From positions 138,295 to 202,294 of IMG/VR virus record IMGVR_UViG_3300023174_000048: a stretch of DNA of 64,000 nucleotides; one strand, given 5' to 3'. Below are positions 7,143 to 48,500 of this stretch, in pieces. The DNA comes from a virus (lineage: Duplodnaviria > Caudoviricetes). Positions within the stretch are counted from its first letter, which is position 1. Each line of letters opens with the position of its first letter. The position numbers and the translations under genes were made by a program. The notes under the pieces are model-generated. The model was not told the DNA's origin and did no database searches. It saw only the letters and a program-made list of their open reading frames with translations.

Positions 7143-10100
7143 TTAATTAAACCATCCAGGACCATTATTATTTGTATCACACCACCAAGGAATCTCATTA
7201 TATGATAGAGTGTTATCGGAACATAGCGAGATAGTATCTTCATCTAATCTTAATGGCTTAGCATTAAATGAACAACCAGCAGATATGCAACTCGCAACAG
7301 AGCCAAAAACAGAAGCATAAGGATTATTATATTGGGTTAATAGATTTATTGATGGAGATACTGTGGTTGTCCCTTGTGATGTAGGAGTATCTACCACTAC
7401 TGGATCAGTTAACCCTGTAAAACTTTTTGCAGATCGTATGGTTCCGTCACCAACAACAATATGGTCAACATATAACCACCCACTAACACTAAGATTAGCA
7501 TATAATTTTGCTGCCGAACCTGTGATATCAATACCTGTAGCTATAATTTCTGGCTCACTACGCTTAATACTTACGGTAGATGTTCCTGTAAAATCGTTAG
7601 AATTAACAGGACGATAGTAGGCTGCCTTATGCCATTCATTAAGATTGGGCAACCAATACTTTCTATACGATGACTTAACAACATTATAAGAATTACTTCC
7701 TATACTATATATTGTATATGCTCCGACGCTTAAATTATAATCAATATCAGACTCACTTAGCGTAATACTTGCTCCATTATGTAGCCAATTAATGAATTTA
7801 ATAGCACTCAAGTAGCTAACAAAAACTACTGGTTTATCACCCATATTTGACTTTGTACTATACTCATATCCAGCATTACTAATACGAGTAATTCCTCCTT
7901 GAGCATTACTACTCATTCTAATGTCATATAGTTCACGATCATTAATTTTTGCTACTGCATTTAAAAATGCACAGTATTGTGTATTTGTTACTTCGTATTT
8001 ACCAATACGATAAATATTATTTACAACACCAAGATTATTAATAACTTGTTGAGAATAAACTGTTGGAGATCCTGCTGGGTTTTTAATATAAATAGGATTT
8101 AAATCTTCTATATTTTTAGGATTATTAACTCCAACAAAAGACATATTAAGACCATTTGTACTAGAGATATAAGTCTGGTCTGTTATACCTTGTAGACTAG
8201 CAATTCTAAACCCAACATAATTATATCCTGACGCTCTAATTAAGGACTCAATACTTTTTAAAACATTAGATCCTATTATGCTGTCATTTGCTGTAGAATA
8301 AGCTCCTCCCGCAATAAATTCTATACTATCTCTAGATTCTATTGCGTCTTGTTTTTCTATCCATTCAGCAGCATTACCGTTCTGATCGTATGTTCCATAG
8401 TAAGACGGCAATCCATTAGTGCCCACACTAGACAATAATCCAGAAAAAATATTTCTACTATTATCATATGCGTAATTTGCAGATGAATACTGGTTTGATA
8501 ATCCTACTCCTGTAATATTAATTATTGTAGAAAACATATCCGAACGACCCGTGGCAAAACCCGAATAGATTCCAGAAGGTATTAATATTCTTCCTGTATT
8601 TGCTTTAATGAATAATGCTGGATCATCTCCAAGTCCATATACTGAGAAATTAATATCTTTTTGACCAGCATTAAATGTTGTATCTACTAATGGTCTAATG
8701 CTTAAAGTATTAGAAGATGAATTTGAAATTATTCCATCATCAACACTCTTAGTCATTGTTAAATATCCACCCTTAGTTATGGAGTAAATATTAACATTTG
8801 ATGTTGTATTTTGTACGATACTTTCATCAACTAAAAGTCCAACAATAGCATTGCCATTTAACTCTAAACTAATAACTCTTCTATATAAATTAGATCCATT
8901 ATATGATATTACTATTTGGTCTCCAGGAGCAAACTCATCAGAAGGAACACTATCTGCGAAAGTAATTTGTCTTAAGCAAGCTGTTGCTGTTCGTGGAGAA
9001 TATTTCGTCCAGACTATGTCTCTCTCAGTTAAGAAATAGTCATCTAGAGTATATATTCCAGTAATTGCTCCGTTTGCTGTTGTGCTCAATAATTTATTTG
9101 CTGGAACAGGAATTCTTAATGATCCTGCTGAGTCAATACTGAGTGGACTATTAATTATTTTGCCACCAGAAACCATCAATAATCCGCTAGACCCTAAATT
9201 ACTAATGGTTATATTAGACGCATCAATATTTTGTGAAGATATGTTTGTTAAATATGATGTCCCTGTGGCATATAATGAGGCAGACGAGAATGTTATGGAT
9301 GATTGTGGACTAACTGTTATTTGACTGCTACCATTAGTTAATAGTAGATTACCATTATTATTAATCTGTAATCTATTTCCACTATATCCAACATATGTAG
9401 AATCTACTGTTGTTTGTATTGTTTTTATTCCTGTGACACCAGAAACTACTGTGATATCTAATGAGCCCTTTTCTCCATAAACTGTTGTATTGACTGCTCG
9501 TGATTCTATCTGGGCATAATTTGTTTGATTGCCTGTAGAGTTTTTAGCAGAAAGGTTGATCTGGGAAACTACGCTTCCACTAGTGATGTCTGTGGATGGT
9601 TTATGATAAAGTGTTATATTTGCTGGATAACAAGATGTTCTATTCTCTAGTCTTAGACCCTCTTGACAAACCGTATTAACAATATGAAATACTGTTGATG
9701 GTCGTGAGCCTGAGGGAATGTTGATTCCTACTCTTCCGTCATAAGAAAAAAATAAATTTTTATTTAATGATCCACTTCCATAAACTATAAAATCACTACC
9801 ATTACTATTGTTATTAACAACAAATGGATATGTGCCGCTGGTCGGTATGATAGTATCTGCGGATGATGCTGAATTTGCTCCGATAAATACTCTTTGAGAC
9901 CCTGAGTCCCAATACATTTCTGCATTATTGATGTCTGCACTCATTATAGAAAAAGTATCAGAATCATTATTTAATGACTGTACGCCCATTCTTTCTGGTG
10001 TCTTATTATTTAGTACTACCCAATCCTTCCCTGTTGACGCCAATCTTGCATAATTATTAAACGAATCTAGTGTGCATACTAGCGAACCATCCTTATCATT

Positions 10101-10598
10101 TATAAATAATGGGTTTGATGATTCTATTAGTTTTAATTCAATAATAATATTGTTTGACTGGTCTAATGATGGAAGATTAATACTGATAGATTTTGAAGAG
10201 CAGTCTACAAGATACAAGGCGCTTATAGGATCTAAAGATAAATCTTTATCAATAACGATTGTGTTGTTTAGTCCTTTGTCAAAAGAACTTTGATTAGCAA
10301 ATACATAAAAATCATTACCAGAAGATGGAAAATCTACTGTATTGTTATTATTAGACGATGAAATAGTCTCAATTCTTTTAACAACAATATTACCAATATT
10401 ATCAAATACTATTTCTCCAACACCAGTTTCAAATAGGCGACTATTTAAGTTTCTGGCTATGTAAGGAATTAAATATCCTACATGATTGGTATTAAGAATA
10501 TTATATGTTTTTATAGCAGATACTGGCTTAATACCGTCATTTTCTATAACGAAATTAAATCCAATATTATCAAATACTCTTATTAGTTTGTTTGACAT
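7143..10598 (-). CDS. Tail-tip/receptor-binding protein with a circularly permuted FGE-sulfatase (C-type lectin fold) domain
   Basis: Immediately after TMP. SYYGTYDQNGNAAEW..GFRIAS precedes YRIGKYEVTN..KPVVFVSY..NWLHNG..WLPNLNEWHKAAYY. Confidence 0.7.
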   Translation of the reverse strand: MSNKLIRVFDNIGFNFVIENDGIKPVSAIKTYNILNTNHVGYLIPYIARNLNSRLFETGVGEIVFDNIGNIVVKRIETISSSNNNNTVDFPSSGNDFYVFANQSSFDKGLNNTIVIDKDLSLDPISALYLVDCSSKSISINLPSLDQSNNIIIELKLIESSNPLFINDKDGSLVCTLDSFNNYARLASTGKDWVVLNNKTPERMGVQSLNNDSDTFSIMSADINNAEMYWDSGSQRVFIGANSASSADTIIPTSGTYPFVVNNNSNGSDFIVYGSGSLNKNLFFSYDGRVGINIPSGSRPSTVFHIVNTVCQEGLRLENRTSCYPANITLYHKPSTDITSGSVVSQINLSAKNSTGNQTNYAQIESRAVNTTVYGEKGSLDITVVSGVTGIKTIQTTVDSTYVGYSGNRLQINNNGNLLLTNGSSQITVSPQSSITFSSASLYATGTSYLTNISSQNIDASNITISNLGSSGLLMVSGGKIINSPLSIDSAGSLRIPVPANKLLSTTANGAITGIYTLDDYFLTERDIVWTKYSPRTATACLRQITFADSVPSDEFAPGDQIVISYNGSNLYRRVISLELNGNAIVGLLVDESIVQNTTSNVNIYSITKGGYLTMTKSVDDGIISNSSSNTLSIRPLVDTTFNAGQKDINFSVYGLGDDPALFIKANTGRILIPSGIYSGFATGRSDMFSTIINITGVGLSNQYSSANYAYDNSRNIFSGLLSSVGTNGLPSYYGTYDQNGNAAEWIEKQDAIESRDSIEFIAGGAYSTANDSIIGSNVLKSIESLIRASGYNYVGFRIASLQGITDQTYISSTNGLNMSFVGVNNPKNIEDLNPIYIKNPAGSPTVYSQQVINNLGVVNNIYRIGKYEVTNTQYCAFLNAVAKINDRELYDIRMSSNAQGGITRISNAGYEYSTKSNMGDKPVVFVSYLSAIKFINWLHNGASITLSESDIDYNLSVGAYTIYSIGSNSYNVVKSSYRKYWLPNLNEWHKAAYYRPVNSNDFTGTSTVSIKRSEPEIIATGIDITGSAAKLYANLSVSGWLYVDHIVVGDGTIRSAKSFTGLTDPVVVDTPTSQGTTTVSPSINLLTQYNNPYASVFGSVASCISAGCSFNAKPLRLDEDTISLCSDNTLSYNEIPWWCDTNNNGPGWFN

Positions 10599-19600: not shown

Positions 19601-22600
19601 CTGCTTCTAAAAATTGTCGTTTTGCTACTGCTGTTTTAGCTTGATCTCTAACATTCTTTAATGCTTTTTCTGCTGCTATTATAGTGTCTATTGATGCTCC
19701 AGTAATCTTGAGTCTTTCAACATCCTTAGTCATTGCCTTTTCAATATCTTTATAAGATATGTCAGCTCCTGCCCCAACTTGTTCAAGAACTTTCTTAAAG
19801 CTTATCATGCTATAACCAGCTTCTTCAAAACCTTTTGTTAATAGTTTAATATTATTAACTAGTTCTGATGAAGCTTCTATACTTTTACTATCAATAGTTT
19901 CTGGTCTGGTTTTTAATTTTTGAACTGCTGGTTCAGCAAAACCTTTTAATCCTTTCATTATTTCTTCAATACTAAAAACACTACCTCCAGTAGCAAATCT
20001 TTGAATTACTCCTCCACCAACTACTCCTCCCTTATTATAACCCTGTAATTTATCCGCTTTATTTAATGTCTCTAACTTGCCATATCCTATTTTTTCTGCT
20101 GCTTTCTTATTAACAACAAATTCACCAGGAGTTAATAATGCAGGAACAGTGTCCTTTGATGATATTCCTGCTTGTCCTCCTTGAGCAAAGGTCTCGATAT
20201 TGGTTGGCTTCAAGGGAGATGATCCAACATATTTTAATGCTAATCCTAGTGGTTTTTCAAAAAGTTTGGATTCAAAAGAATTTACTAATTCGGGATCTCC
20301 AGATTGTATTCTGGACATAAGCTGACCCAATAAAGCCCCTTCTCTTACATCTCCTTCACTTCCGGCATAAATAGATTTTCTTGATCCTCCAGGCAAGGTA
20401 AACTCTGTTCCGTCTTCGGACTTTAATGTTTGAGATCCTTCTTGAACACGTACTCCAACCGACATCATCCCAGCGTCTGGATTTTTATCAAACTTACCTT
20501 TTAATCCGGTTTGATTTTCAGTAGGAGCATATTTATCTTTAAGAGTATCGTAATTATCATGCATCCATTGTACCACTAGTCCTTTTTGTAATTCATAATC
20601 TAAATCATAAGTTTTTGGATCTAAAGTTTCATCAAAACTTAATACCATTGGTTTTCCTGATCTATCTCCTTGAGCAACAGTGAAGTTGCTTCCTCCATTA
20701 ACTCTCATCTTAGCTTGTTGTTCTGCTTTATTCTTTTCTGTATATAAGTAGAATCCTTCTCCTTGACCATATCCTTTAGCAATATTAGAAAGGGCACCTT
20801 TTTCTTTAAAGCTCTTTAAAACACTATCATCAACTCCGGTATTGCTTCCGTGATATAGTTTAACTTGTCCTCCAGTAGCATATCCTCTATTTTTTCTCCA
20901 CATTTTTTCATCATTAGTTTTGGTCTCAAACTCTTTTGGCTTGCGACCTTGTTTTTCCATAGCCTCTTGTATTCTTTTTTGTTTATTAGCCTGGGCAAGT
21001 TCATATCTTTCTTGTTCTGGTGATGTTTTTTTAGATGGTATTAGTCCAAATCTTTTGTTTATCTCCCAGTCTGGAATAGCATAGTCTTTATATCTATTAT
21101 CTAATCGTTCTTCTAATTTTGCTGTGAGTTCTTCTTGGCTCATGCCCAAAGTCTTTGCTCGTGCGGCAATATCGGGTGGGGAATATGATCCTCTTACCCA
21201 GCCACCCTCGGAAAGCATTTGTATGTCTTCTTTGACGGGTTCTGGAATTCCATATTGTTGTCTAAAATGTTTTTGGAATTCTTCAACAGCCTTGCCTCTA
21301 CTATTACTATCTATTGTTCTTTTAACTTCTGTTGGAATATCAGGATCGATACCAAATATTTTTGCTGCTTTAGATCCGATGCCCATTGGAAAGTCAATCG
21401 GACGAGTTCTTAAAGCATCGTCTAATATTGTAGCATCTGCTGATCCAAAAATTTGTTCTAGTAAAGCGCCTTCAATATTACCCTGACCTAATGTTTCTCT
21501 TTGTTTTTTAGTTAATTTCTTTGGAGATATTCCAAGAAGTTTGGCTGCTCCGCCTACAATTTCTTCTGTTTGACCACTAAGATAATCAATTACATTTTGA
21601 TATTGATTTGGTAATCCTCTCTGAACTATTGAAGCATCTATTGATCTTTCTTGTCCAGACGAATCAACTCCAAGATTCCAAGTTTCTGGCCCTAATAATC
21701 CAGTATATCCCAATGGATTTAATCCAACTAGTCCTAATTGTTTTGACGATAATACAGCGCTAGTTGTTTCTGCTAGTGACGTGGCCTTTTGAGTTCCTTG
21801 TGATTCATTAAATTTGTCTATTAGATAGTCTCTTGTTGCAATATAGTAAGCGAGCTTGTCTGCTTTTGTTTCTGGTCTAAATGCAGAATTCCAGTATTTT
21901 AATTTTCCTCCTTCGGCGGTATCTCTTACTGTTTTTCCTGAGAATGGACCAAAACTTGCGTCATTTGGTAATCTGTCTGTTCCAAATCTTTTTAATATCT
22001 CTGTTCCTTGTGCTGGTAATATCCCAGAAGACTTCTTGACCTGAGTAGCCTTTTCTACATTTTTTAGTATTGCTTCTTGTAGTCCAGAAGGCATTGCTGT
22101 TGGCACCCCACTAAATTCACCGGCCATGCCTTCAGACAATTGGGCCGATATGACATCTTTAGATAAGTCGGATGGCTGTGCTGATACTGATGCTCTGCGT
22201 GATGGATCTAATCCATAAGCATCTGGATATTTAGCAGATAATAAGGAGATTATATTGTGTGCTCTGTAGCCCAAAAGACTGGAACTCAATTCGTCTCTTT
22301 TCTCTCTCATAGCTTCAATTTGGGCTACTACATCTGGAGCATTGTCTCTTACCCTTTGAGTAATATTTTTGCCGTATGGGCCTCCTGGAGCTTCTGCTAA
22401 CATTTTTTGAATTTCAGCATTTGTTTGAGCTTTTTGATTTGCTCCATATTTTGTTATTTCTTCAATAAGCATAGGAACCATCACGCTGCGATTTCTTAGC
22501 TGTGCTCTATTGCCCATGAGAACAGAAGCAACTTCTGGGCTAACAAAACTAGTTAAAGCTTCATCATCTCCATTAATCACTGCTTGCCTAACTTTAGTAG

Positions 22601-25600
22601 CACTAATATCGTCTATCCTTGGAATATCTGTTACGTCAACTCCTGCTTTTTCATATTTTTGAAGAGCACCGGCTTTTTTCCCTGATGTGATTGCTAATGC
22701 TCCTTTTAGTTTAGCAAATTTTCTACGACCATTAGCTCCTTGAACCTCCATCATTTTTGGCAAAACATCTCCTCTGCCAGTTGATTCGGCACTTATCATG
22801 CCTCCAGGAAAATTAACTCCTGCTAATAATGCTCTAAAATCTGCTGGAAATATGCCATATCGTGCAGCATGTGCGAGCTTCTCTGCGTCGGTATCTCCTT
22901 CTCCTCTGTCCATCGATAAATTAGGAGCAACACTCACTATAATATCTTCTGCTGAAGCATTTGGATTTCTAGAAATCATATTACTTAATAAAGTATCAAA
23001 TGCTCCACGATGGCCTCTGGTCGGTGGAGCAAATCCACCAGTGTAGTATCCACCAGCCTGAACAATTTCTGGCAATTCTTCTTCAGTCTTACGTCTTAAA
23101 CCAAAACCTCCTGGTTTGCGACCAAGAACGGTTGCCCTTTTACCTAATTCATCCCTTAATATACTCTCTTCTACTGTAAAATCTCTAGGAGCAATATTTG
23201 TAATTCCTGGTTTACGACCATATAGACCTTCCCCCGTTAAATCTCTCTGAACTCTATTAGCTCCTATTTGATCTTGTTCTTCTGTTGTATTGGAACTTAA
23301 TATATATGCTCTATCAACATCTTTTAAATATGCATCTAATTTTTCTTGACTAGCAGTAGATGTTAAGACTATAACCTCATTAACTTTAGCAATATCTTCA
23401 GGGCTAAGAATTGAAGAGCGAATAGTTTTTCTTAAAGTTGCATCATCTGGAGATCCTTTTCCCGTAGCCAAACTACTTTTGCCTGATCCTGCTGCTCCAG
23501 CGATTGCTGTTAATTTTGATAAAGACTCTTCTTTTCTTGCTTGTGCTGCTAATTTTGCTAATTCTCTGCTATATAAACTAGTATTTGTAATTCCAAGTTT
23601 TTCCATGGCTGGTCCAACAATATCGGCATTTGCTGGATCTCGTAAAACATCTGTATCTATAATTCCTATATTTCTTTGTACTTTTCCACCAGCAGCATAA
23701 GTTTGTCTCTGAATACCAGCACTACCCAATAGATCAGTTAGTGTAGAATCTAAAGCTCCTTGAAGATTACTATCAAGTCTAGGATAGTTCTGAACTAGTG
23801 TTGTTAAAAATTCTTCTTTCCCACTATCTTCTATTCTATCAATATAAGATTGAGAAATACTATTATCTAATAATACCTGATTAACTTCTGGATTTAATGG
23901 TTTAAAATCTTTAGCCTTTTTAATACCAAGAGATTTTGCCCAAAGAGAGGATGCGGCGGTGGCTGCTTCGGGAGTTTTAGCAGGCTTGTCTCCCCTGCTA
24001 ATAGATCGATTTTGTTGTATAATTTGATCTAATGTTCCAACTTTGTATGAACGTCCATATACAACATCCGAACTATTATAGCTGGACTCTAAAGCATCAA
24101 ATGCATCTGCTAAATCATTATTATCTCCACTAAATAGTGAAACAACTCTTGATTTATATTTATCAAAACTCTCTGATGATCGTGTTCTTAATCCTTGAAA
24201 TAATTGATGGGTCATTTCATGATAAAAAGTATCATTTTTTCTACCAGAAAGTCTTCCGGTGCTCATGGTGATCGCGCCACGGCCAGTAGCTTTAGCTGTG
24301 GTTTGCATCTGATCCATAGCAGTTAATTCTGCTTGGTTTTTTAATTTTTTAGTATTAGATATCTTCATTTGAAGATCATTAATCTCATCCCAAGTTTGTT
24401 TAGCTAATGCTTCATCATATGAAAAAGATCCGTCATCAAAAGTTTTTACTGGTGTTTTTATTATTTTCTTCAATTCTTTTTGTTTTTCTGCTACTAATTT
24501 TTCATATCCATAAAGATCCTGGTCATTGGCCTCTGTATATCCAGAACCAGATAGGTCATAGCCAGATGTGCTTTTAGTACCCATACCCGTTCTATCAAAT
24601 TGACCAAGACCTTTTAATCCCAGATCAGTAAAATCAATATGACTTGGTAGAGCTAATGATAAATCTTCTTTTGGTAGTCCTATGAATTTAGCAAAGTCAC
24701 TCATTCTTCTATAAATAGCGCTATTAGCTAATTTACTCTTGAAAGAATCTGCAAACTGCTTTCTATCGAATGGTATTGAGTCAAAAGCTTCGGTTGCTTT
24801 TGCTTGATCCACTTTGAATCTAAAGTCTTCTGGATATTCCAAGAAGGATCCTCCACTAAAAGCTTTATCAACTTGTTCTTTATTTAGCTTGGCGTCTATT
24901 TCTTTGAAATAGGCATTACTAATTCTTTTGGGAAATGGAAAAGTTCCACTTCCAAATGATCGGGTTTCTTTTGCTTTTCCTCCGGCCATGAATTTTTGAA
25001 TTTTTCCACCAAGATTTTTTTCTGTAAATCTACCTGTTTTAAATTCATCAGATATAGTTAAAATATTTGAATCGCCTTCTATAAGTAATCTATTATATCT
25101 ATCTTTATCTCCTTGTACAATTTGTTTCTTTAACTGCTTCAATTTACCTTCATCTGCATTATTCAGATTTTTTTTCAGTTCTTCTGTAGCCTTGTTTCCA
25201 GCCTCCACAGCCGTTAGTCCTGAATCTGTTACTATTGTTTCTGGTGGTATAACCCAATCATTACTCTTTTTTCCTGTTTTTTTAACCTTACTTAATATAT
25301 TAGCATTTTTTTCATATTTTGATATTTGATCTAATTTTGCTTGACTGACTTTACTTTCTCCAGTTTTTTTAGAGTTAGCTCTCTCGCCCATAGTCTCATA
25401 TGCATCAAAACCTCCTACTCTGAATTCTACTTCAAAAGGCTTTGGTCTAGGAATAGCAGTTGCAATAAAGCTATCTCCATCTTTTACTTTTTTAATACTT
25501 TCAAGTGATCTTATCTCAACAGCACCACCGCTAGCAAACCCTTTTCTTCGGTTTGATCCTCCAGCTCTTATACTTCCTCCACCACCATACTTATTCATAT

Positions 25601-27299
25601 TATGAAGATTATCCGATCCTATAGTCTCAACAGCTTTTTTTCGTATCACAAATTCTCCTGGCTCTAACATTGCAGGAACAGTATCTCCACTACCAGTGCC
25701 TGGAACAACACCTCCTCTTGCGAATTTTCTAATTACTCCACCACTAGCTTTACCATCTGGTCCTCTTTTAACTCCAGTACTAAAACCACTAGCAAATTGA
25801 GTTAAAGCTTTGGCGCCCTTAAATGCTGTTATAACAGCAAGAGCGGGTAATATTCCTTTAACAGCATCTGTCACTTTAATTAGTCCACTAGCTAAACTTA
25901 AAGCTCCTCTTATTAATGACTGAAAACCTTTTGATTGTCCTATTTCTCTGAATAGAGCAAAAAACTCTTGTCTTACTTTGCTAATTTGATTGGCCAAAGA
26001 AAGTTGTGCTGTTGCAGCATCTTTCGCTAATGATCCTTGACCAGCTTGTGCAGTCTTTAATGCTTCTTGAGCAACTGTGAACTGCTGAATAAGCGGAATA
26101 ACTTTACCAATTTGTCGGAATCCACCAAGTTCTTCAACTATCTTAGAGAACTGAGCAGTTCTTGGATCAATTCCACTCAATCCCTTACTTAATAATTCAA
26201 CAGCTTTATAGGCTCCTACGAATTTACCTTCGGTATCAGTTAGATTAACTCCAAACTCTTTGAGAGAATCAATTGTGCTTCCTCTCTGAATACGAGTAAA
26301 AATAGTTCTTAAGCCAGTAGCAATAGTTTCAGCACTTTCACGAGTTGTAGCACGAACACTTGTGAACACTGCTATAAATTCATTTAAAGCATCCTTACCT
26401 TCACTAACTCCTTTACTTGCAGTTGCAAATACGCTACCCGTTCTTTGAACAGCAGTAATAATGTCAGAAGATTCAACAGCGAATCTTGCAGCAACAGTAT
26501 TTACAGCACCTAGTGCTCCTTCTAAATCATCAGCACTAATACCAAACTGTCTCATTAATGCGATACTTCCTTCTACTGTCTCATTCATATTATCAAATGA
26601 TGGAGCTAAACTACTTAAAGCTAAAGCTCTTAATGCTTTTTCTGTTTCTCTCGCACTCAAACCAGCCTGTGCTAATGTAGAAGCAACAGAGGTTAAATCT
26701 TTAGAACTAACACCAAATGTTGTTGACAGATTTGTAATTTGTTCTTGTAGTTTTGCAAGGCCAGATGACGATTCTCCGGTTACCTGTTGTAATTTAACTA
26801 ATTCTTTATCATAATCAATAAATGCTTGAACACCCTGACTAATACTATTTGTTAATCCGTATATAACACTAGTAACAGTACTAAATGCTACGAATCTTCT
26901 AATGGCAAGACCAGCCTGTTTACCGAACTCTTGCATCTCTGCTGATGCTGATCCAAGATCTTTTGCTGACGAGGCTGATGCTTTGTTAAGTTTATTAACA
27001 GCATTAGCTGCTGCATTTATTTGTTGTGGAACGTTATTTATTTTGACGCTATTTATGCTGTTACCAAAAGCTTTGATAGCTGCTGAAGCAGCAGTAGCAG
27101 ACGTTGTCGTTGAACCAAATGCGGCATTTAAGCCTTTGAGAGACGATGACAAAGCCGCAACATTTTTAGTAACAGCAGGATCAAGCTTAAAAGTAATATT
27201 TGCATTAATGTTACCAAGATCTTTTTTAATTTGTGCAGCAATTTGCTTTACATTTGTTGGTCCTTGTAAATTCAGTTGTGCAGTTAAGTTGAATGCCAT
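10602..27299 (-). CDS. Giant tape measure protein (5565 aa) with embedded enzymatic cargo domains
   Basis: Follows the tail tube and chaperones. TP901-like core near the N-terminus (RRFVAFS..QAFIDYDKELVKLQQVTG..LAQAGL..ETIATGLRTIFTRI), long A/K/E helical stretches and four DTVPA(M/L)LxPGEFV repeats. Confidence 0.9.
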   Translation of the reverse strand: MAFNLTAQLNLQGPTNVKQIAAQIKKDLGNINANITFKLDPAVTKNVAALSSSLKGLNAAFGSTTTSATAASAAIKAFGNSINSVKINNVPQQINAAANAVNKLNKASASSAKDLGSASAEMQEFGKQAGLAIRRFVAFSTVTSVIYGLTNSISQGVQAFIDYDKELVKLQQVTGESSSGLAKLQEQITNLSTTFGVSSKDLTSVASTLAQAGLSARETEKALRALALSSLAPSFDNMNETVEGSIALMRQFGISADDLEGALGAVNTVAARFAVESSDIITAVQRTGSVFATASKGVSEGKDALNEFIAVFTSVRATTRESAETIATGLRTIFTRIQRGSTIDSLKEFGVNLTDTEGKFVGAYKAVELLSKGLSGIDPRTAQFSKIVEELGGFRQIGKVIPLIQQFTVAQEALKTAQAGQGSLAKDAATAQLSLANQISKVRQEFFALFREIGQSKGFQSLIRGALSLASGLIKVTDAVKGILPALAVITAFKGAKALTQFASGFSTGVKRGPDGKASGGVIRKFARGGVVPGTGSGDTVPAMLEPGEFVIRKKAVETIGSDNLHNMNKYGGGGSIRAGGSNRRKGFASGGAVEIRSLESIKKVKDGDSFIATAIPRPKPFEVEFRVGGFDAYETMGERANSKKTGESKVSQAKLDQISKYEKNANILSKVKKTGKKSNDWVIPPETIVTDSGLTAVEAGNKATEELKKNLNNADEGKLKQLKKQIVQGDKDRYNRLLIEGDSNILTISDEFKTGRFTEKNLGGKIQKFMAGGKAKETRSFGSGTFPFPKRISNAYFKEIDAKLNKEQVDKAFSGGSFLEYPEDFRFKVDQAKATEAFDSIPFDRKQFADSFKSKLANSAIYRRMSDFAKFIGLPKEDLSLALPSHIDFTDLGLKGLGQFDRTGMGTKSTSGYDLSGSGYTEANDQDLYGYEKLVAEKQKELKKIIKTPVKTFDDGSFSYDEALAKQTWDEINDLQMKISNTKKLKNQAELTAMDQMQTTAKATGRGAITMSTGRLSGRKNDTFYHEMTHQLFQGLRTRSSESFDKYKSRVVSLFSGDNNDLADAFDALESSYNSSDVVYGRSYKVGTLDQIIQQNRSISRGDKPAKTPEAATAASSLWAKSLGIKKAKDFKPLNPEVNQVLLDNSISQSYIDRIEDSGKEEFLTTLVQNYPRLDSNLQGALDSTLTDLLGSAGIQRQTYAAGGKVQRNIGIIDTDVLRDPANADIVGPAMEKLGITNTSLYSRELAKLAAQARKEESLSKLTAIAGAAGSGKSSLATGKGSPDDATLRKTIRSSILSPEDIAKVNEVIVLTSTASQEKLDAYLKDVDRAYILSSNTTEEQDQIGANRVQRDLTGEGLYGRKPGITNIAPRDFTVEESILRDELGKRATVLGRKPGGFGLRRKTEEELPEIVQAGGYYTGGFAPPTRGHRGAFDTLLSNMISRNPNASAEDIIVSVAPNLSMDRGEGDTDAEKLAHAARYGIFPADFRALLAGVNFPGGMISAESTGRGDVLPKMMEVQGANGRRKFAKLKGALAITSGKKAGALQKYEKAGVDVTDIPRIDDISATKVRQAVINGDDEALTSFVSPEVASVLMGNRAQLRNRSVMVPMLIEEITKYGANQKAQTNAEIQKMLAEAPGGPYGKNITQRVRDNAPDVVAQIEAMREKRDELSSSLLGYRAHNIISLLSAKYPDAYGLDPSRRASVSAQPSDLSKDVISAQLSEGMAGEFSGVPTAMPSGLQEAILKNVEKATQVKKSSGILPAQGTEILKRFGTDRLPNDASFGPFSGKTVRDTAEGGKLKYWNSAFRPETKADKLAYYIATRDYLIDKFNESQGTQKATSLAETTSAVLSSKQLGLVGLNPLGYTGLLGPETWNLGVDSSGQERSIDASIVQRGLPNQYQNVIDYLSGQTEEIVGGAAKLLGISPKKLTKKQRETLGQGNIEGALLEQIFGSADATILDDALRTRPIDFPMGIGSKAAKIFGIDPDIPTEVKRTIDSNSRGKAVEEFQKHFRQQYGIPEPVKEDIQMLSEGGWVRGSYSPPDIAARAKTLGMSQEELTAKLEERLDNRYKDYAIPDWEINKRFGLIPSKKTSPEQERYELAQANKQKRIQEAMEKQGRKPKEFETKTNDEKMWRKNRGYATGGQVKLYHGSNTGVDDSVLKSFKEKGALSNIAKGYGQGEGFYLYTEKNKAEQQAKMRVNGGSNFTVAQGDRSGKPMVLSFDETLDPKTYDLDYELQKGLVVQWMHDNYDTLKDKYAPTENQTGLKGKFDKNPDAGMMSVGVRVQEGSQTLKSEDGTEFTLPGGSRKSIYAGSEGDVREGALLGQLMSRIQSGDPELVNSFESKLFEKPLGLALKYVGSSPLKPTNIETFAQGGQAGISSKDTVPALLTPGEFVVNKKAAEKIGYGKLETLNKADKLQGYNKGGVVGGGVIQRFATGGSVFSIEEIMKGLKGFAEPAVQKLKTRPETIDSKSIEASSELVNNIKLLTKGFEEAGYSMISFKKVLEQVGAGADISYKDIEKAMTKDVERLKITGASIDTIIAAEKALKNVRDQAKTAVAKRQFLEAGLKESKTGKVLGSGGAQQAILTEAEKKEKLITAQRKSQIEKDLIKKDPSLLGDKDKLERRTNRRLEKEQRQIKEQAFSSATEKVTGIKRSELSGMGIGGADIQSYVSQSMTDRKTLAQMDKQLIAMRLEEYKNAGTVRGVSVKSASEALSLAKEEVSKRREMINEMAKEQGEKGVGAGGLTDIRNSPIKKAVQERYFSGTMSQGIGTALGDVGMVAGLVGGQGKNIANLMYDTSTDEGKIAAAGKGAAIEQAGSTLATGLTTASQLMAINPLLGGLTALGTVVYAATDYFTDFTGAQETAALEMEKNLRFEEVAASEKDLAKAFKDFEKDLGNIDLQKALDKALVRSSESSLKAVSAETKVAQNEKGKTRTWTEFLSGAEKPKMDTQDFNELDSKIAERNADSGDKAFALISQKINTGASVESIQADKELIGARRALVLADEDALKTVRARIMEEGGYEKVSKEKQDAILDEVANQKILTNVQVQSAIKTKQMSDALEAADKAGRKLAASFEKLSNIISESVNRIKFESDVRKSSAEKSRSALRGQSEDNGPKLRELNVLENPNAYSEKDFNQALQSATAGVDEKTRNQLIGGAQLQQQLPNAITKSIAEKLSTKGSLGVEEAKTEAIKTTNEQIDKTNLSDEQKTSLKKQAETRINNLAEEAKKKNDTPQAELDAFREGLGDADNILGAFGVKTLEAVKALSSFKQGALADFSEGLRDASKAAKDAQNYFKKARDIRAQGDMNLREVMTGVGETYDEKQARVMGDVAGLAGGETSVGGIKNRIVDLQAQRTAVEEKRQGMSDPDELKKSAIQLRSLDDQLRDTREALDTLASSTELVEKAFDDLKNVRDLQKNRESFVNTLLTNTPEEADKLNKTFIRLQRNLSGGLNGASNQRDARKAFNQTLRETGSVREATKAGNTVLANQRKETLALSQDPGVRAAQELNIRNQYAQGKGKPGVSADQAVADYFKQQQLQLTKSMAIESGMMNNPLVQQSIAAMENPNADPAMKEASSKYLQSVGLQADATKAQGELALLESQQALVSANANLKVSIDDLRTTVEASMLNNDMNEGRINAPGGAKVPLNIGVAAPVAPPKARGGLIYASEGQLVNFQPQGTDTVPAMLTPGEFVINARSTSEHLPLLKAINSGNYSKGGVVYLAQGGEVQKRKEERIDAQKESWMMSEATGGRPDEVVSRTSSSWAQSQVGDGRWMGMTEDERQSEAKKYEPEFQNRWDNYNNKENDAQLRSANDAGYGSIKEDPNSAIVGANFFNEEKKRATERFEKARDAETAALNTPIAQTSLSPQEFSQPVIQPSLPVPLVRADVIPWGRGTTTKIRPTQEAIDEKKKIKSEDSRRRSLWMKGSKGRSPEEETEYATLKSNQIKREVGPYTVEKDRNISSLVNSAYRKGAQSNEITPEERSALKELGSDRRNRGSLRALSFSAALPPITSNAVNPSGLDPATASRINEGYSRPSNEQQAAQQNAAIESGIRQQYTTARPDITDPAVSSGVQTGLASYTTNKVLQKPDPNDPKYQTRNPLEGMVNRIADNRAYEAQQTQQATQTNTSVNLRTPEIKNQDGRLGVNIGPMVPSPRVSLPGDYVAGTNYTYGGDPNTPRFESQKTTRDRESSRRDWFNFPLGSPSNVLATETMIKYPNQLFMPNSQINSYQSVGATDPLEYSNDPKIRAKAETQNVYRITASPGLSSSIQTATTSSDTKKKREADSAITSTKIGIEKRAQIAAQEQAFDVEFNQLLESGAWRDDEGNREAYKKQRRQQVINERNKAKEDAQTAEIDNKFNKFLAEGKVKEEQRDKYRDEQRSYMPKPYKESVASYKVPTTEQLLQDQANSEAIAQFEGAQQVSAAEKVRAQQQKAEEDRQASLYINSSNPATAAVGYVGGVTQGIGDALYGAANITAGAVATVASPIVGGIGYAMSGDDTAFKIGDENNLRNRTAENMYDEARANGRPMPSPQEIAAAQDVAAIRARTFTANSDRLNNQQGAYSAATSAAADVGLRAMGAGATSFVEAGQAVAGMGPIQTGEQTALQRNDARNVELAGGMDSWAGFGTAFAQTTAYGSTQGAGALVNAEGAVFNVAGRMAGAAGRVASRIPGVSSVGRAAGKIPGAASVGRVAGTVDRAITSTARGAGRLGGRIPGARGAGRAVNNFVEGVQDVATQMGDVIGVRGIAPSYSRPNLNRSGTTSSYKNLKPAKPVTFPESAPTKIRSIDDINPLEYDGNYGRLAAKAKAARSRALDEKLSNIDLTMPTPGPQVKPKITAAQYQQIQDLVNQGVPNSTATQSVLGKAKTTVAGPSIVKPKPTKPTIPTKPVKPTTATKSKVNVTDPVSFRQVQENLASDLADYVTPARRNKFLSEFVEKSTPQSVSVDLDKINASRQIKGINRPVTNSSKVGMTTAESKLVFGSQYADESIVKHELGHLFQKSTKGSKKDPFGKRSLQKSPLMKEIEKFVDDPSGLSSISGGKSKNGYSSSAIKKNPSELLTTLVENIEKVKGNKIAERILKKLMKFHGYNKGGLVRYYGNGGHVDDHDSHDSHGHHGMTTSSLAGNAASTGLSAVATRGRNPLNMRTMGSNLDAHFGTGHTATLVGEGIDMIGEARHTAHSVGHGAKVFGLGTSSPAAATGIGAVAAYGGYAAGSYASEAAAIMSGEKTAEDYAKENDRQRQQGYAQNFGENMFSPGRAAAQLVVETESTTRQMADNAAESKRIEQRTQELGAQGLIPDHYTQSQEYKKAERERQIQNVPKPAGGRMMYASGGLVYANNGALVPSLSQGTDTVPAMLTPGEFVVNRESSQQHMPLLNAINSGHFNRGGIVNYLANGGIVAPKYYAEAGLVSGGSGGSSGSSGVSNDISSSISAAVGQAMNQLSTALESGMETYSQMIQSSTETLNNFGQTFSSASQTIASSANTWSETASQIPTSLTAEINGTQSVRLDVGSVQNHASAAGKSAGESAGHYAGAITSQNTVAKYDRTQFEGNLNSAANNRPMRT
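11990..12600 (-). other. TMP domain: second HExxH zinc metallopeptidase-like domain
   Basis: KHELGH at 12306..12320 (aa ~4994) and downstream NPSELLTTLVE, paralleling EEFLTTLVQ of the first copy. Boundaries approximate. Confidence 0.55.
20200..20880 (-). other. TMP domain: ADP-ribosyltransferase-like (H-Y-acidic clade)
   Basis: KLYHGS (H ~aa 2150), GEGFYLY (Y ~aa 2184), later DLDYE. Begins directly after YATGG. Confidence 0.55.
21240..21920 (-). other. TMP domain: PD-(D/E)xK restriction-endonuclease-like
   Basis: GALLEQ (E ~1948), RPIDFP (D ~1969), PTEVKR (E-x-K ~1991-1993). Boundaries approximate. Confidence 0.5.
22500..23050 (-). other. TMP domain: HxGH nucleotidyltransferase (NMNAT/cytidylyltransferase-like)
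   Basis: YTGGFAPPTRGH (23010..23039) and C-terminal ISATKVR (~22588..22608), matching the (T/H)xGH and ISSTxIR signatures. Confidence 0.7.
23060..23690 (-). other. TMP domain: P-loop small-molecule/nucleotide kinase-like
   Basis: Walker A GAAGSGKS at 23475..23498 after a hydrophobic strand (LTAIA), and a lid-like NRVQRD. Confidence 0.6.
23700..24975 (-). other. TMP domain: first HExxH zinc metallopeptidase-like domain
   Basis: FYHEMTH at 24207..24221 (aa ~1027) and distal GKEEFLTTLVQ (~23796..23820). Bounded by FMAGG and YAAGG. Confidence 0.6.
25040..25520 (-). other. TMP domain: staphylococcal nuclease (SNase/thermonuclease)-like
   Basis: KVKDGDSF (25470..25481), FRVGGFDAYET, AGNKATEELK and DKDRYNRLL, in the SNase order DGDT / R..GIDAPE / G..A / DRYGR.L. 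Confidence 0.7.
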
Positions 27300-27401: not shown

Positions 27402-28301
27402 CTAAGCTGGAGCAACCTCTTTTGATTCAGAAACGACGGGCTGAGCTGGTTGAGTCTCTGGCTCGACTGTTTCTGTTTTTGCTGTTGGTTCATCTTTTTT
27501 GTCTTCTTCTAAGATAACTGGGTTTCCGTTTTCATCTAGGAACGGCTGTGCATCAACGAGATAATCTCCATCAGAAGTTACTCTGTTACCATACTTATCA
27601 ACAAAGTTACCTTCTTCGTCTATAAATCGTCCACTCTCATCAATTAGCCTACTTTCCGCATCAATTAGTCTGCCCTTCTTGTCTACTAATCGTAGCTTAT
27701 CGTCAACAAACTTAAACTTCTTTAAGAATTTGTTTTCTGGTAAATTACTTTCATAGTCATTATCCAAACCATACAGCATATTGGCCAAGTTTTGTGCTCC
27801 TAGTAGTCCAACCTGATCAGTTGATCTATTAAGATAGTCTTCCATATTGTTGAAATACGGTTGCTTGCTATCATTATACACCACACAAACACTAACTAAA
27901 TAGTTAAATCTAGCATTATCAGCTTGACCTTCGGCACTATGGTTGTCTAGAGATGTACGAACACTGATAAGATCTCGTATTTCATCTCTGACGCCCTTCA
28001 TTTTAATTGCAAGGTCTTTGGCTTCGTTTAAACTAAATCCACCCTTAGCAAGTCTCTTCTCGCCATCAAGCAACTCTTTTTGCAAGGTGGTGAACTTAGC
28101 CTGTTTTTCATCGTTCCATAAACCCTGATCTTCTAATAGATCATCTAATTTTGCCCTCACAACACTTTTGCTTTTAATAGCATCAGTAAAAGCTTGATTA
28201 TAAACTTTTTGGGCTTCTCTTTGATCATTTAAAGACGGTGTTTTAACAAGAAACTCTTTTTCTGCACCATCAACTGTTGTCTTAAAAGTCTTAGTCTTCA
28301 T
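27402..28301 (-). CDS. Putative tail assembly chaperone
   Basis: Directly upstream of TMP. Start moved to MKTKTF (GGAG SD upstream). Contains short D..GR.ID..G repeats and an acidic tail. Confidence 0.55.
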   Translation of the reverse strand: MKTKTFKTTVDGAEKEFLVKTPSLNDQREAQKVYNQAFTDAIKSKSVVRAKLDDLLEDQGLWNDEKQAKFTTLQKELLDGEKRLAKGGFSLNEAKDLAIKMKGVRDEIRDLISVRTSLDNHSAEGQADNARFNYLVSVCVVYNDSKQPYFNNMEDYLNRSTDQVGLLGAQNLANMLYGLDNDYESNLPENKFLKKFKFVDDKLRLVDKKGRLIDAESRLIDESGRFIDEEGNFVDKYGNRVTSDGDYLVDAQPFLDENGNPVILEEDKKDEPTAKTETVEPETQPAQPVVSESKEVAPA

Positions 28302-28593
28302 ATCTATCTCCTTCTTTCTTTTTATCAAAGTTAAATTGATATTTTTGTTTTACTGTTCCGTTATTTCCAAAATAATTGCTAAGATCATCAATTGCTGATC
28401 GTGCTTGTTTATTTCCATTATTGAGTATGCTATTTCTAGCATATTCCCACATATCTTCAAATTCTTCAGCTTCTTTGCTATCATTTTCCCATAAATGTCC
28501 AAAAATAGCTTCGAATCTTGCTAGTGAGCCAATCATTGTGGTTTGAAATTTTTTATATACATTATCTACTAATATTTTTTGTTCGTTTGTCAT
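28291..28593 (-). CDS. Hypothetical protein (tail chaperone region)
   Basis: 100-aa ORF co-oriented with the operon; its end overlaps the next start. Confidence 0.5.
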   Translation of the reverse strand: MTNEQKILVDNVYKKFQTTMIGSLARFEAIFGHLWENDSKEAEEFEDMWEYARNSILNNGNKQARSAIDDLSNYFGNNGTVKQKYQFNFDKKKEGDRYED

Positions 28594-45563: not shown

Positions 45564-48500
45564 TTAGAACGTTCCACCATCTAGTGAACAATCAACAATA
45601 GAGGCACATACTGTTGCTGCTGTTAAGTATGTTGCAGTAGTTACTGCTGTTACGTGTCCCATTCCGTCAACAGTGAAACTAGCAATACCATTACTTCCTT
45701 GGGCTCCGCTTAGAGTTGATGTGTCATTATGTCCAATTGTTATACTACCAGTACTATTAGTAATATCTATTGCTGTACCTTGTGTCAATGTGGCTTTAGT
45801 TAAAGTATTTCCAGTAGAATTACCAATTAATAATTGACCATTAGTATATGTAGTATCTCCTGTTCCACCATTAGCAACAGGTAATGTTCCAGTAACATGA
45901 GTGGTTAATCCAATCTTACCCCAAGACGGTGCAACTCCTACTCCGCCAGCTAGTAGAGCATTACCAGTAGCAACATCGGCTAATTTGGCTAAAGTAGATG
46001 AGGTATCAGCATATAATAAATCACCAACAGCATATGAACTTTGACCAGTTCCGCCCTTATTAGCAGCTATAGTTGTGGCGCTCCATGTGCCGGTACCAAT
46101 TGTTCCAAGAGTTGTAATATTGGTGCTTCCTGCCCAGGTACTAAGAGCAGTATTTTGTACATTATCAAGACTTAAATCTGTTTTAAGTTCTGATGCTGAA
46201 CGACTTGTTACAGTATTATCAGCATTCACTCTAATAAAAGAAACCGCACTAGGATTAGTTAGTGTGAAGAAATTAGAACCAACAGTAGTAGCTCCTAATG
46301 ATGTTCTATAAGTAGAATTACTTTCTGTAGATACCGTATTATCTGCGTTTATTTTTGGAAAAGTAATTGCTGAAGGATTAGTTAAATTGATAAGATTTCC
46401 ACCAACTGTTGTTGGAACAAAAGATGAATTTTTAATGAGTTTGCCAGTAGCTCCATTATATACTGCTAAAGCATTATCTGTTGATGAAGCTGGTCCCACA
46501 ACAGCCCCATCAATATTGGTTTGAGCAACAGTCCAGGTACTATTTACATTACCAGCAGCATCAGCAACACCTATAATTAAATCTCCAATTTCGCAAACCA
46601 CACCAGCATATGTTCCTGTTGCAACCACCCTATAGGTCCAACCAGCACTGATTGTTCCTGTTGGAAGAGTTCCTGGCGTACCTCCTCCAATAGTACCTTT
46701 AAAAATCATAGCATCATTAGCAGCTAATAAACTATCAACATAAGTTATAACAGCATCTGCCCTAGGAATAGCAGTAGAGCTACTAGATAGAGTGGTTTGT
46801 ACGCTATATCCATCAGATAAAGCATCTCCTGTTGTTCCATTCCATATCGGAATATTGCCATTAGTTGAAGATGCTAGCTTTTTAATTTGAGCATCATTAG
46901 TAACATTGCTTAATCCTACCTTAGATTTAGCTAAACTACTTATCCATGTTGGATCAGCATATGAACCAGATGTATACACTCCACTGGTTACTGTAGCAGC
47001 ATTTCCACTAATGCTTATATTCCATGTTCCAGTAGCATTAGTTCCGCTTATGGAAGGAGATCCAATACTGTTATAAGAAATGGTTCTTGCTGCACTACCA
47101 TTAAATGTGAAACTGGAACTATCACCAGCACCACCATTATTAATAGTGATAGAATTAGTAGTATTTCTAGTATCGCTTAGCCTACTATCATTACCCTGGC
47201 AGAAAGTATTAGCTGTTGATCCAAAGTTTCCTGTTGTTAATGCTCCAGCAGTTGTTGTTATAATTGGCAAGTTGGCTGTTGAGCCGATAGCGCCAGCATT
47301 TGTTATACTACCTAGTTGTGGTATGTCACTAGATACTAAAGCTCGAAAAGATGGAGCACCAGAGCTTCCATTAGGAGCAGCCAAAACAGTATTAGCAGTT
47401 TTACTTCCATAAGGATTTACAGTATCTCCATAAGCTGTTGCTAATCCAAGAGTATTACCGGACTTAGTTAAACCAGAACCAGCAGTAATTTGACCAGCAC
47501 CGCTAAATTGAGCAAACGCCAACGCTGTGGTTCCTAATGTGATAGAATCATTAGTTGTTAATACCCAACCGCTATCAGCATTGGTTGTACCTTCTGCTAC
47601 AAAAGTAAACATGCCAGCAGTAACTTCAGCATCAAGATCAGCATCTGTTGCTCTGCTCCAAGCTCCTGCGGCAACAACATAAATACCATTTTGACTACCG
47701 GTACTTTGGTCTTTAACAAGAACTCTATCTCCGGCACTTAAAACAACACCGTCAATAGTTTGAGTTCCAGACAGAGTTATATTGGCTGTGGTGGCAACTC
47801 TAACACTTTGCTTCACATCAAGGCCGCTTCGTGCAGCATCAACATAAGCTTTTGTTGCAGCATCTTGGGGATTGGTCGGATCTAACACATTGGTTAAAGC
47901 TTGACTATTCATTGAAACAGAAGCTGTCGGTACCGCCATCTGATCCAAACGGTTAGTTCTTACAGCAGTATTAAAATCATTGATATTGCTGGCTACTAAC
48001 CCAGTACCAGTAACGGTAAGATTTCCTCCAATACTAACATTTCTAAAATTACTAACATCTCTATTAGCGTCTGCAGTTACAACCTTATTTGCCTGTACTG
48101 TTCCAACAGTTGTAATTCCATCAATTCTACCTAATTCTGTTGTATCTAGAGTAACACCACTAACTGTAATAGTGCCACCATTAACCGTTAGAGTACCTCC
48201 TAGTGTCTGATTACCTGTTGTTCTAACTACTGTAGAATCAACTGCTATTGTATCTGCTGTTACACTAATACCATCACCTTGTCCAATATCAAAAATCTTA
48301 TCAGAACTTAAGTCTCCTCCACCAACCAATCCGCTTCCGGCAGTAAGCGTTCTTGATGTGTAAACCCCACTTGTTACTGTAGCAGCATTTCCATTTATAC
48401 TAATTCCCCATGTTCCTGTAGCATTAGTTCCACTTATTGACGGGGCCCCAATACTATTGTAAGATATTGTTTGAGCAGTATTTCCATTAAAGGTGAACGA

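Follow-up and report, generated by a model that had tools for sequence, protein, structure and literature searches.

Virion-carried enzymes are known from several phages, examples being Alt of T4, the virion RNA polymerase of N4 and the peptidoglycan hydrolase domains of tape measure proteins, and since such enzymes precede phage gene expression they constitute the first move of the phage against the host and its defences. Two enzyme superfamilies are of particular concern here. Nucleotidyltransferases of the HIGH superfamily transfer a nucleoside monophosphate from a nucleoside triphosphate onto a phosphate ester, giving a product linked to a nucleoside diphosphate (NDP); the products of PF01467-type enzymes include nicotinamide adenine dinucleotide (NAD), nicotinic acid adenine dinucleotide (NaAD), dephospho-CoA, CDP-alcohols and ADP-heptose. 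Kinases of the zeta-toxin family, to our knowledge, in all characterised cases phosphorylate a hydroxyl of an NDP-linked compound: zeta/PezT acts on UDP-GlcNAc, and AvrRxo1 is reportedly an NAD 3'-kinase, acting on NAD or NaAD. In ng-zeta-1, the zeta-1 toxin kinase of Neisseria gonorrhoeae, two sequence blocks are swapped in comparison with classical zeta toxins, so that the catalytic base (Asp56) comes to lie upstream of the P-loop lysine (Lys115); its substrates are UDP-MurNAc, UDP-GlcNAc and UDP-Glc, to which it adds phosphate at the 4'-OH, and its action brings about lysis (PMC5923241). Here, we describe a 64,000-nucleotide stretch of viral DNA (hereafter the window; positions 138,295 to 202,294 of the IMG/VR record IMGVR_UViG_3300023174_000048, Caudoviricetes) in which a P-loop kinase domain and a HIGH-superfamily nucleotidyltransferase domain form a single cassette inside a giant tape measure protein. 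The cassette is an orphan clade, in which two known enzyme superfamilies are combined in a new carrier; no report of a kinase and a transferase combined in a tape measure protein was found in the literature.

A two-domain cassette in giant tape measure proteins

The carrier is encoded by a single open frame of 5565 aa (P0001; 10602..27299, like all the features located below on the minus strand). Its N-terminal part matches PF10145 (PhageMin_Tail) at 91.7 bits, against a cut-off of 33.2, over the tape-measure core (aa 185–391; 26127..26747); several tape-measure families of PHROG also match it (E 1e-28), and the gene belongs to a structural module with the order terminase, portal, head and then tail genes (the major-head match in this module is weak, E 6e-4). 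At the level of sequence, these matches identify the product as a phage tail tape measure protein of the TP901 type.

The cassette occupies aa 1199–1650 of this protein (22350..23705). A preliminary description of the same DNA had drawn it somewhat shorter, at 22500–23690 (aa 1204–1600), as a NadR-like tandem of kinase and nucleotidyltransferase, and the layout proposed there largely holds: the Walker A, GGFAPPTRGH and ISATKVR motifs all lie in one open reading frame (ORF) on the minus strand, and 153 aa separate the first two, where about 150 had been given. The further statement that no GG delimiter intervenes needs amending, as a string of the [FY]xxGG form (YYTGG, aa 1418–1422) does occur between the motifs, but it is no linker: it forms the transferase's own first strand and HIGH motif. 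The unity of the cassette is borne out, in that no full-length homologue has one domain alone and the AlphaFold model of aa 1190–1650 is confident for the two domains as a unit (pLDDT 85, pTM 0.79). The N-terminal boundary is marked by the linker YAAGGKV (23679..23699; family consensus GGxxQKFAxGG, columns 1–16 of alignment A1) and the C-terminal one by APGGPYG (22371..22391; alignment A1). The cassette shares its tape measure protein with other effector-like modules.

A word-indexed search recovered 53 cassette-bearing proteins, and when 1.84 billion cluster representatives were searched exhaustively with HMMER, 87 proved to have the cassette. Short fragments aside, the matches are all to giant proteins of about 2,500–7,700 aa, nearly all of them with PF10145, and in IMG/VR there are 34 cassette loci, on viral contigs of 28–244 kb. 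The closest relative found is a 131-kb viral contig with an open frame of 5646 aa, 69% identical over the stretch. No relatives of the cassette were found among GTDB reference genomes in a search with a narrower alignment, and so there is no evidence for prophage or cellular copies; a tblastn search of 50,697 phage records gave no match to the cassette in isolated phages. The kinase and the transferase occur together in every one of the 108 sequences that cover the module, although its start ranges from about residue 430 to about residue 2,130 of the host protein. It thus behaves, as far as these alignments indicate, as a mobile yet indivisible unit.

Conservation within the unit was counted over the same 108 sequences, which are 28–100% identical to one another, and the recurrence of the motif set over such a range is, for these aligned sequences, far beyond chance. 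Residues D1215, D1217, G1268, K1274, D1302, R1362, G1429, R1480, R1489, Y1549, S1566, R1571 and R1604 are invariant in all 108, and H1430 is kept in 107. Near-invariance of catalytic residues when pairwise identity falls to 28% is the mark of selection acting at both active sites, and the cassette is apparently active, with both of these sites intact.

Free-standing relatives of the transferase domain were sought with a profile, and none turned up. Two candidates for free-standing copies, P0123 and P0126, were rejected as fragments on contigs of about 2 kb: the frame of P0126 extends upstream into a P-loop, and the upstream P-loop region of P0123 is broken by two stop codons. In P0123, a distant homologue (ENA contig L036, positions 1–140), translation of the frame ahead of the called start gives AAAGAG*TTLA*GNKG, with TAA and TGA at the positions of K and M in the P-loop region of the related contig L037 (PAGAGKTTLAMGNKG); a decayed copy, sequencing errors and recoding are candidate causes.

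Searches of the PDB by sequence gave only noise for the cassette with phmmer, and profile searches gave matches only at the level of motifs (the P-loop, and ISxTxxR/TxGH strings). In BFVD, parts of the cassette model are matched by proteins of 600–1,270 aa from uncultured Caudovirales, named 'Cytidyltransferase-like domain-containing' or 'Zeta toxin domain containing'; multi-domain phage proteins with these folds may be commoner than sequence searches suggest.

The kinase domain

The first domain (aa 1203–1411; 23067..23693) was modelled alone from 66 sequences with a pLDDT of 91, and its predicted fold most resembles the permuted zeta toxin ng-zeta-1. The three crystal forms of that protein (6epg, 6eph and 6epi) align with Z 8.3–8.5 over 153–154 residues, model residues 7–209 corresponding to chain residues 48–232, and only these structures match the domain from its first strand through to its end. 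Adenylate, UMP, guanylate, polynucleotide and dephospho-CoA kinases match the P-loop core only, with Z 5–6.7, so that ng-zeta-1 stands about 2 Z above adenylate and UMP kinases, a margin over generic P-loop kinases that is moderate and not overwhelming (8.3–8.5 against no more than 6.7). AvrRxo1, at Z 5.8, reaches back to model residue 20. Foldseek pairs the domain with ng-zeta-1 at a probability of 0.99, and the best neighbour in the ESM Atlas (TM 0.61) belongs to a cluster in which 92% of members have PF06414 (Zeta_toxin).

The arrangement of the conserved residues is of the same kind. The strand IGIIDTDVLRD (23637..23669), which we propose to carry the catalytic base, precedes the P-loop, and its two aspartates, D1215 and D1217 (108/108), lie 59 and 57 residues ahead of the invariant K1274 in the Walker A motif GAAGSGKS (aa 1268–1275; 23475..23498; GxxGxGK[ST]). 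In ng-zeta-1, Asp56 lies 59 aa before Lys115, an equal layout (PMC5923241). From the ranges of the structural alignment, and not residue by residue, D1217 would fall at about the position of Asp56. Further along, the loop GLYGRKPG (23205..23228) contains the invariant R1362 (108/108), a putative lid arginine. The DxD motif was also considered as the mark of a HAD phosphatase, a candidate that was rejected, as the kinase fold begins with the strand that holds this motif and the domain contains no HAD fold.

On the strength of the model, we regard domain 1 as a zeta-toxin-type small-molecule P-loop kinase, permuted in a manner so far known from ng-zeta-1. It is not a ribosylnicotinamide kinase of the NadR type: when the kinase profile was compared with E. 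coli NadR by hhalign, just 20 columns, those of the P-loop, could be aligned, at a probability of 7.7%, the NadR kinase was not among the structural matches of the domain, and human nicotinamide riboside (NR) kinase 1 (NRK1) reached only Z 4.5.

The nucleotidyltransferase domain

The second domain (aa 1412–1640; 22380..23066) is assigned by structural and profile matches to the HIGH superfamily, among enzymes of the NMNAT, NadD and PPAT kind. In the AlphaFold model, residues 1413–1609 adopt the Rossmann-like HIGH nucleotidyltransferase fold, with a strand at model residues 228–232, then TRGH, and then a helix at 239–255. The nucleotide-binding (T/H)xGH motif is GGFAPPTRGH (aa 1421–1430; 23010..23039), of which all 108 sequences share G1429 and all but one share H1430. 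The segment HAARYGIF..ADFRALLA (22821..22871), with R1480 and R1489 kept in 108/108, occupies a position equivalent to one in NadD and PPAT, and we take it to be the acceptor-phosphate loop and the helix that follows. The ISxTxxR motif, ISATKVR (aa 1565–1571; 22587..22607), aligns with the equivalent motif of MJ0951 (3gmi) and of an NMNAT of the NadR type (9x6f), its S1566, T1568 and R1571 being kept in 107–108 of the 108 sequences (S1566 and R1571 are invariant). Finally, LRNRS (22485..22499), which contains the invariant R1604, begins a long C-terminal helix in the model.

In an exhaustive structural comparison of the cassette model (VIA Z), more than 25 members of the superfamily matched the domain with Z 8–13. 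The highest value, 13.0, was shared by the NMNAT of M. jannaschii (1f9a; 156 aa, root-mean-square deviation 3.1) and a PPAT (4nah; 144 aa, 2.8); NadM followed at 12.9, many NadD enzymes at 11–12.6 and TmcAL at 10.4 (C-terminal helices included), while NadR structures, at 10.1–10.3, fell below NMNAT and PPAT, as did FAD synthetase (9.3), ATP sulfurylases (about 9) and cytidylyltransferases (about 8). Foldseek, applied to the PDB and to Swiss-Prot models, likewise returned PPAT and archaeal NMNAT.

Profile comparisons agree on the superfamily. Of 66 diverse members, 59 are recognised by PF16581 (best E 2e-7) and 25 by PF01467 (best E 6.5e-7), the window's own copy being matched by PF16581 alone, at 17.5 bits and so under the cut-off of 26.7. 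In NCBIfam, the model of the generic family and those of NadD, CoaD, NadR-NMNAT and NadM each draw weak matches from a minority of members (E 0.008–0.02 for NadD, CoaD and NadR; TIGR01526, for NadR, matches 5/66 with a best E of 0.016). In hhalign, the NMNAT domain of E. coli NadR gave E 8e-5 (probability 61%) over 142 columns that include both motifs, CoaD gave E 6e-5 over 57 columns, and NadD gave nothing useful. The family consensus is GxFxPxTxGH with ISGTxVR, from which the window's FAPPTRGH and ISATKVR differ; the resemblance of these two strings to 9x6f is therefore particular to the window and not a trait of the family. The placing of domain 2 in the HIGH, or cytidylyltransferase-like, superfamily (PF01467 clan) is thus solid; within it, the modelled domain is structurally tied between NMNAT/NadD/NadM and PPAT, at Z about 13.

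Possible roles of the cassette

As HIGH transferases make NDP-linked products and zeta-type kinases phosphorylate such products, the two domains would be expected to act on one NDP-linked metabolite. On balance, we favour the view that they form a two-enzyme module of the tape measure protein that acts on a metabolite of this kind and is delivered at entry. The module would then probably modify a nucleotide-linked metabolite in the newly infected cell, candidate substrates being NAD/NaAD, a UDP-sugar or a CoA-like compound. The simplest path would have the transferase act first and the kinase second on the same metabolite, for which the conversion of dephospho-CoA to CoA, or that of nicotinamide mononucleotide (NMN) to NAD and then to 3'-NADP, might serve as precedents. 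The cassette would be carried into the cell with the tape measure protein as the DNA enters, before phage genes are expressed, and might serve to alter host metabolism or to blunt a nucleotide-based defence. Ejected tape measure proteins and polyvalent proteins offer analogies that make delivery in this manner plausible. The analysis shows the folds, the catalytic residues, their conservation and the restriction of the cassette to tape measure proteins (87 representatives, essentially all of them giant proteins or pieces of such proteins, and 34 IMG/VR loci), and with these two intact active sites of known chemistry, one that transfers a nucleotidyl group to a phosphate ester and one that transfers a gamma-phosphate to a hydroxyl; substrate class, order of reactions and cytoplasmic delivery are what we infer.

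Several points weigh against it. The matching of an aspartate with Asp56 comes from alignment ranges, not from a residue-level alignment, and a Z of 8.5 is only moderately above background for the aligner used. PF06414 was not among the 25 most-matched Pfam families listed at E <= 1, whether for a set of 29 members or for one of 66. The tie between NMNAT and PPAT means that the substrate of the transferase is not fixed by structure. The presence of the module in the virion, its survival of proteolysis and its entry into the cytoplasm are likewise things that we infer, and a module of 450 aa cannot fit in its folded state inside the tail tube. Lastly, the most constant neighbour of the cassette, a module with a PD-(D/E)xK-like motif set to which we return below, could point to a nucleic-acid substrate.

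A further possibility, which we advance only tentatively, is that the cassette is a phage-injected antimetabolite synthase. The transferase would build an NDP-linked compound (such as NAD or NaAD, from NMN or nicotinic acid mononucleotide) and its phosphorylation by the zeta/AvrRxo1-type kinase would then yield a product that is either a dead end or a signal (3'-NADP, for example); or the kinase might take as its direct substrate an NDP-sugar of the host or a nucleotide of immune signalling.

The preliminary description had favoured NAD+ salvage after the manner of NadR: the kinase would convert NR to NMN, the transferase would join NMN and ATP into NAD+, and the virion-delivered module would either offset NAD+-depleting defences or feed an ADP-ribosyltransferase (ART), here the tape measure protein's own ART-like domain. 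NMNAT, NadM, NadD and NadR are indeed among the top structural matches of the transferase, the hhalign alignment with the NMNAT domain of E. coli NadR covers both motifs, 9x6f has the unusual strings FAPLTRGH and ISAT, and an ART-like domain is present in the same tape measure protein. What stands of the 'NadR-like' tandem is that a P-loop kinase adjoins an (H/T)xGH nucleotidyltransferase with NMNAT-type enzymes among its best structural matches. The order of the domains, however, is reversed, the kinase is of another class (its alignment with NadR being that of a 20-residue P-loop), the tie at Z 13.0 between PPAT and NMNAT does not single out NMN as the substrate, and the two strings shared with 9x6f depart from the family consensus. 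Nor does the context lend support either to NAD+ rescue or to ART-feeding. PF04095 (the Nampt/NAPRTase family), a possible supplier of NMN, was not found in the nearest related phage genome, which is about 95% complete; and when co-occurrence was assessed with coverage-filtered profiles over the 104 proteins that bear the cassette and are 2,500 aa or longer, the ART-like domain was found in only 20, which makes it an optional add-on and not the regular partner of the cassette. The few copies of a tape measure protein in a virion are kinetically ill-suited to refilling a millimolar NAD+ pool, and low-abundance targets would suit them better. In addition, NADase defences yield ADP-ribose and nicotinamide, and not NR or NMN (PMC13728456). 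A path of the NadR type, with the kinase acting first on NR, is thus disfavoured by kinase class, domain order and context, and we consider salvage unlikely.

It is about equally doubtful that the cassette mounts a zeta-style attack on wall precursors, the kinase phosphorylating UDP-GlcNAc or UDP-MurNAc and so stalling peptidoglycan synthesis at entry, with the transferase in an accessory or regulatory part. Tape measure proteins often have wall-directed activities, but damage to the wall so early would risk premature lysis, and a fused transferase that is equally conserved and catalytically intact would be left unexplained. The closest structural relative of the kinase, ng-zeta-1, does phosphorylate UDP-sugars at the 4'-OH, with lysis as the outcome; the residues by which it contacts UNAM, Lys59 and Asn75 (PMC5923241), are without clearly conserved counterparts in the cassette, where R/A and G stand at the approximate positions.

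Similarly improbable, in our estimation, is a kit for processing nucleic-acid ends, in which a domain like polynucleotide kinase (PNK), the nucleotidyltransferase and a neighbouring nuclease would act together on RNA or DNA ends, for example in tRNA repair, modification of phage DNA ends or sabotage of host nucleic acids. In its favour is that neighbour (aa 1651–2033; 21201..22349), a module that ends in a PD-(D/E)xK-like motif set (E...IDFP...TEVKRT, with E, D and K invariant in alignment A4, where the pattern is E...(I)D(F)P...(T)(E/D)xK(R)T). It accompanies the cassette in 94 of the 104 proteins, usually directly downstream, and gave no sequence match in Pfam or the PDB, so its label rests on the motif. 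Both domains of the cassette have many invariant arginines; PNKs are among the weaker matches of the kinase (4gp6, Z 5.9; Pnkp1, Z 5.0), but about 2.5 Z below zeta-1; and TmcAL, a HIGH enzyme that acts on tRNA, matches the transferase at Z 10.4, C-terminal helices included, although adenylyltransferases of small molecules, at Z 13, are nearer to its core. Neither a ligase nor a phosphatase domain came up in the Pfam scans.

That the module is no effector at all, acting in virion assembly (by modifying tail components, for instance) or being cleaved off and staying in the producer cell, is very unlikely in spite of the poor fit of folded globular domains to the tail tube and of the HExxH peptidase-like modules and recurring GG linkers that suggest processing, because the cassette is confined to tape measure proteins and no copy was found standing free, which argues that physical linkage to an ejected protein matters, and because processing at linkers is equally a trait of polyvalent injected proteins (PMC5512222).

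Companion modules and genome context

The remainder of the effector block appears to be highly variable between lineages, given the varied extra Pfam domains of the homologues: P0045 and P0053 have an EF-hand (PF13202/PF00036), P0048 an ADP-ribosylating exotoxin domain (PF03496), and P0019, P0021 and P0022 have PF03983. An HExxH module is found in 50 of the 104 cassette-bearing proteins and an SNase-like block in 16; like the PD-(D/E)xK and ART modules, these were recognised as motifs or conserved blocks alone. The window's own ART-like block (KLYHGS...GEGFYLY) is at 20186–20871, about aa 2143–2371 of the giant ORF.

The 18-aa motif GGxxQKFxxGG that stands ahead of the cassette recurs weakly at other module junctions, both in the giant ORF (aa 760–777 and 1199–1207) and in the homologues P0027, P0030 and P0051. 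This would fit a linker or processing site, and the repeats make iterated profiles drift between unrelated modules.

The terminase encoded in the window shares only about 24% identity with terminases from phages of Bacillus and Microcystis, a distance that marks the lineage as uncultivated. Directly downstream of the tape measure gene, a large tail-region protein of 1151 aa (7143–10598, minus) is weakly matched at aa 862–997 by a PHROG family that bears the annotation 'kinase' (phrog_18508, E 1.8e-6). Further away, a protein of 1621 aa (45564–50429, minus) is strongly matched by families of head decoration and virion structure (phrog_2647, E 4e-58), while its C-terminus gives matches of the tail-fibre kind. 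Two ORFs (27402–28593, minus) that lie immediately upstream of the tape measure gene occupy the site expected of tail assembly chaperones and overlap by 38 nt; the overlap contains the run GATAAAAAGAAAG, but as the second ORF is in the +1 frame with respect to the first, a classical -1 slip would not join them.

Implications

With a zeta-toxin-type kinase and an adenylyltransferase conserved as a pair in over 100 giant tape measure proteins, the repertoire of the virion would gain small-molecule chemistry directed at nucleotide metabolites. It would also extend to phage entry the zeta/AvrRxo1 kinases, which have so far figured in toxin–antitoxin systems and as an effector of plant pathogens; if the cassette were indeed an antimetabolite synthase, it would be the first case of a zeta-family toxin kinase as a virion-delivered phage effector. 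An NAD-related substrate would bear on the arms race over NAD+ in phage defence, and a UDP-sugar on how long-tailed phages handle the cell wall. Being compact (about 450 aa), well modelled and provided with clear catalytic residues, the module is directly testable.

Comparison with known systems

With ng-zeta-1 (6EPG, 6EPH and 6EPI) and the zeta/PezT/AvrRxo1 family at large, the cassette kinase has in common the P-loop kinase fold and extra N-terminal elements, and with ng-zeta-1 itself a catalytic Asp strand about 59 residues before the Walker A lysine. It differs from ng-zeta-1 in being just 10–18% identical, in having neither the OB-fold C-terminal domain nor an epsilon antitoxin, and in being joined to a nucleotidyltransferase within a structural protein of a phage. 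The transferase, for its part, has the HIGH fold of NMNAT (1F9A), NadM, NadD and CoaD, with GxFxPx(T/H)xGH, ISxTxxR and an arginine loop after strand 2, and aligns with these enzymes at Z 11–13 over about 150 residues, with 12–18% identity; it is set apart from them by additional inserts and by the long C-terminal helix that bears an invariant arginine.

Precedents for a HIGH transferase and a P-loop kinase that act in sequence on one NDP-linked metabolite are the bifunctional CoA synthase (PPAT and dephospho-CoA kinase) and PAPS synthase (APS kinase and ATP sulfurylase), although dephospho-CoA kinases and ATP sulfurylases are weaker matches than zeta-1 or NMNAT/PPAT and have no sequence-level relationship with the cassette. 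NadR, too, has a HIGH transferase and a P-loop kinase in one chain, and its transferase motifs are similar. In NadR, however, the NMNAT comes first and the kinase second (in the E. coli protein, NMNAT at 63–214 and P-loop at 230–249), whereas in the cassette the kinase leads, with Walker A at aa 1268 ahead of TxGH at aa 1427; the cassette has no counterpart of the helix-turn-helix domain of NadR, and its kinase is of a different class. Judged by these sequence features, it falls outside NadR.

For the carrier itself, the closest conceptual parallel is that of the polyvalent proteins of phages and conjugative elements, very large proteins in which unrelated enzyme domains are strung together with modules like metallopeptidases and whose entry into the cell along with the DNA is presumed (Iyer et al., 2017; PMC5512222). 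The text of that account mentions no tape-measure carrier, HIGH transferase or zeta-type kinase (PMC5512222); unlike the proteins it describes, the carrier of the present cassette is, on its domain matches, a tape measure protein of the TP901 type.

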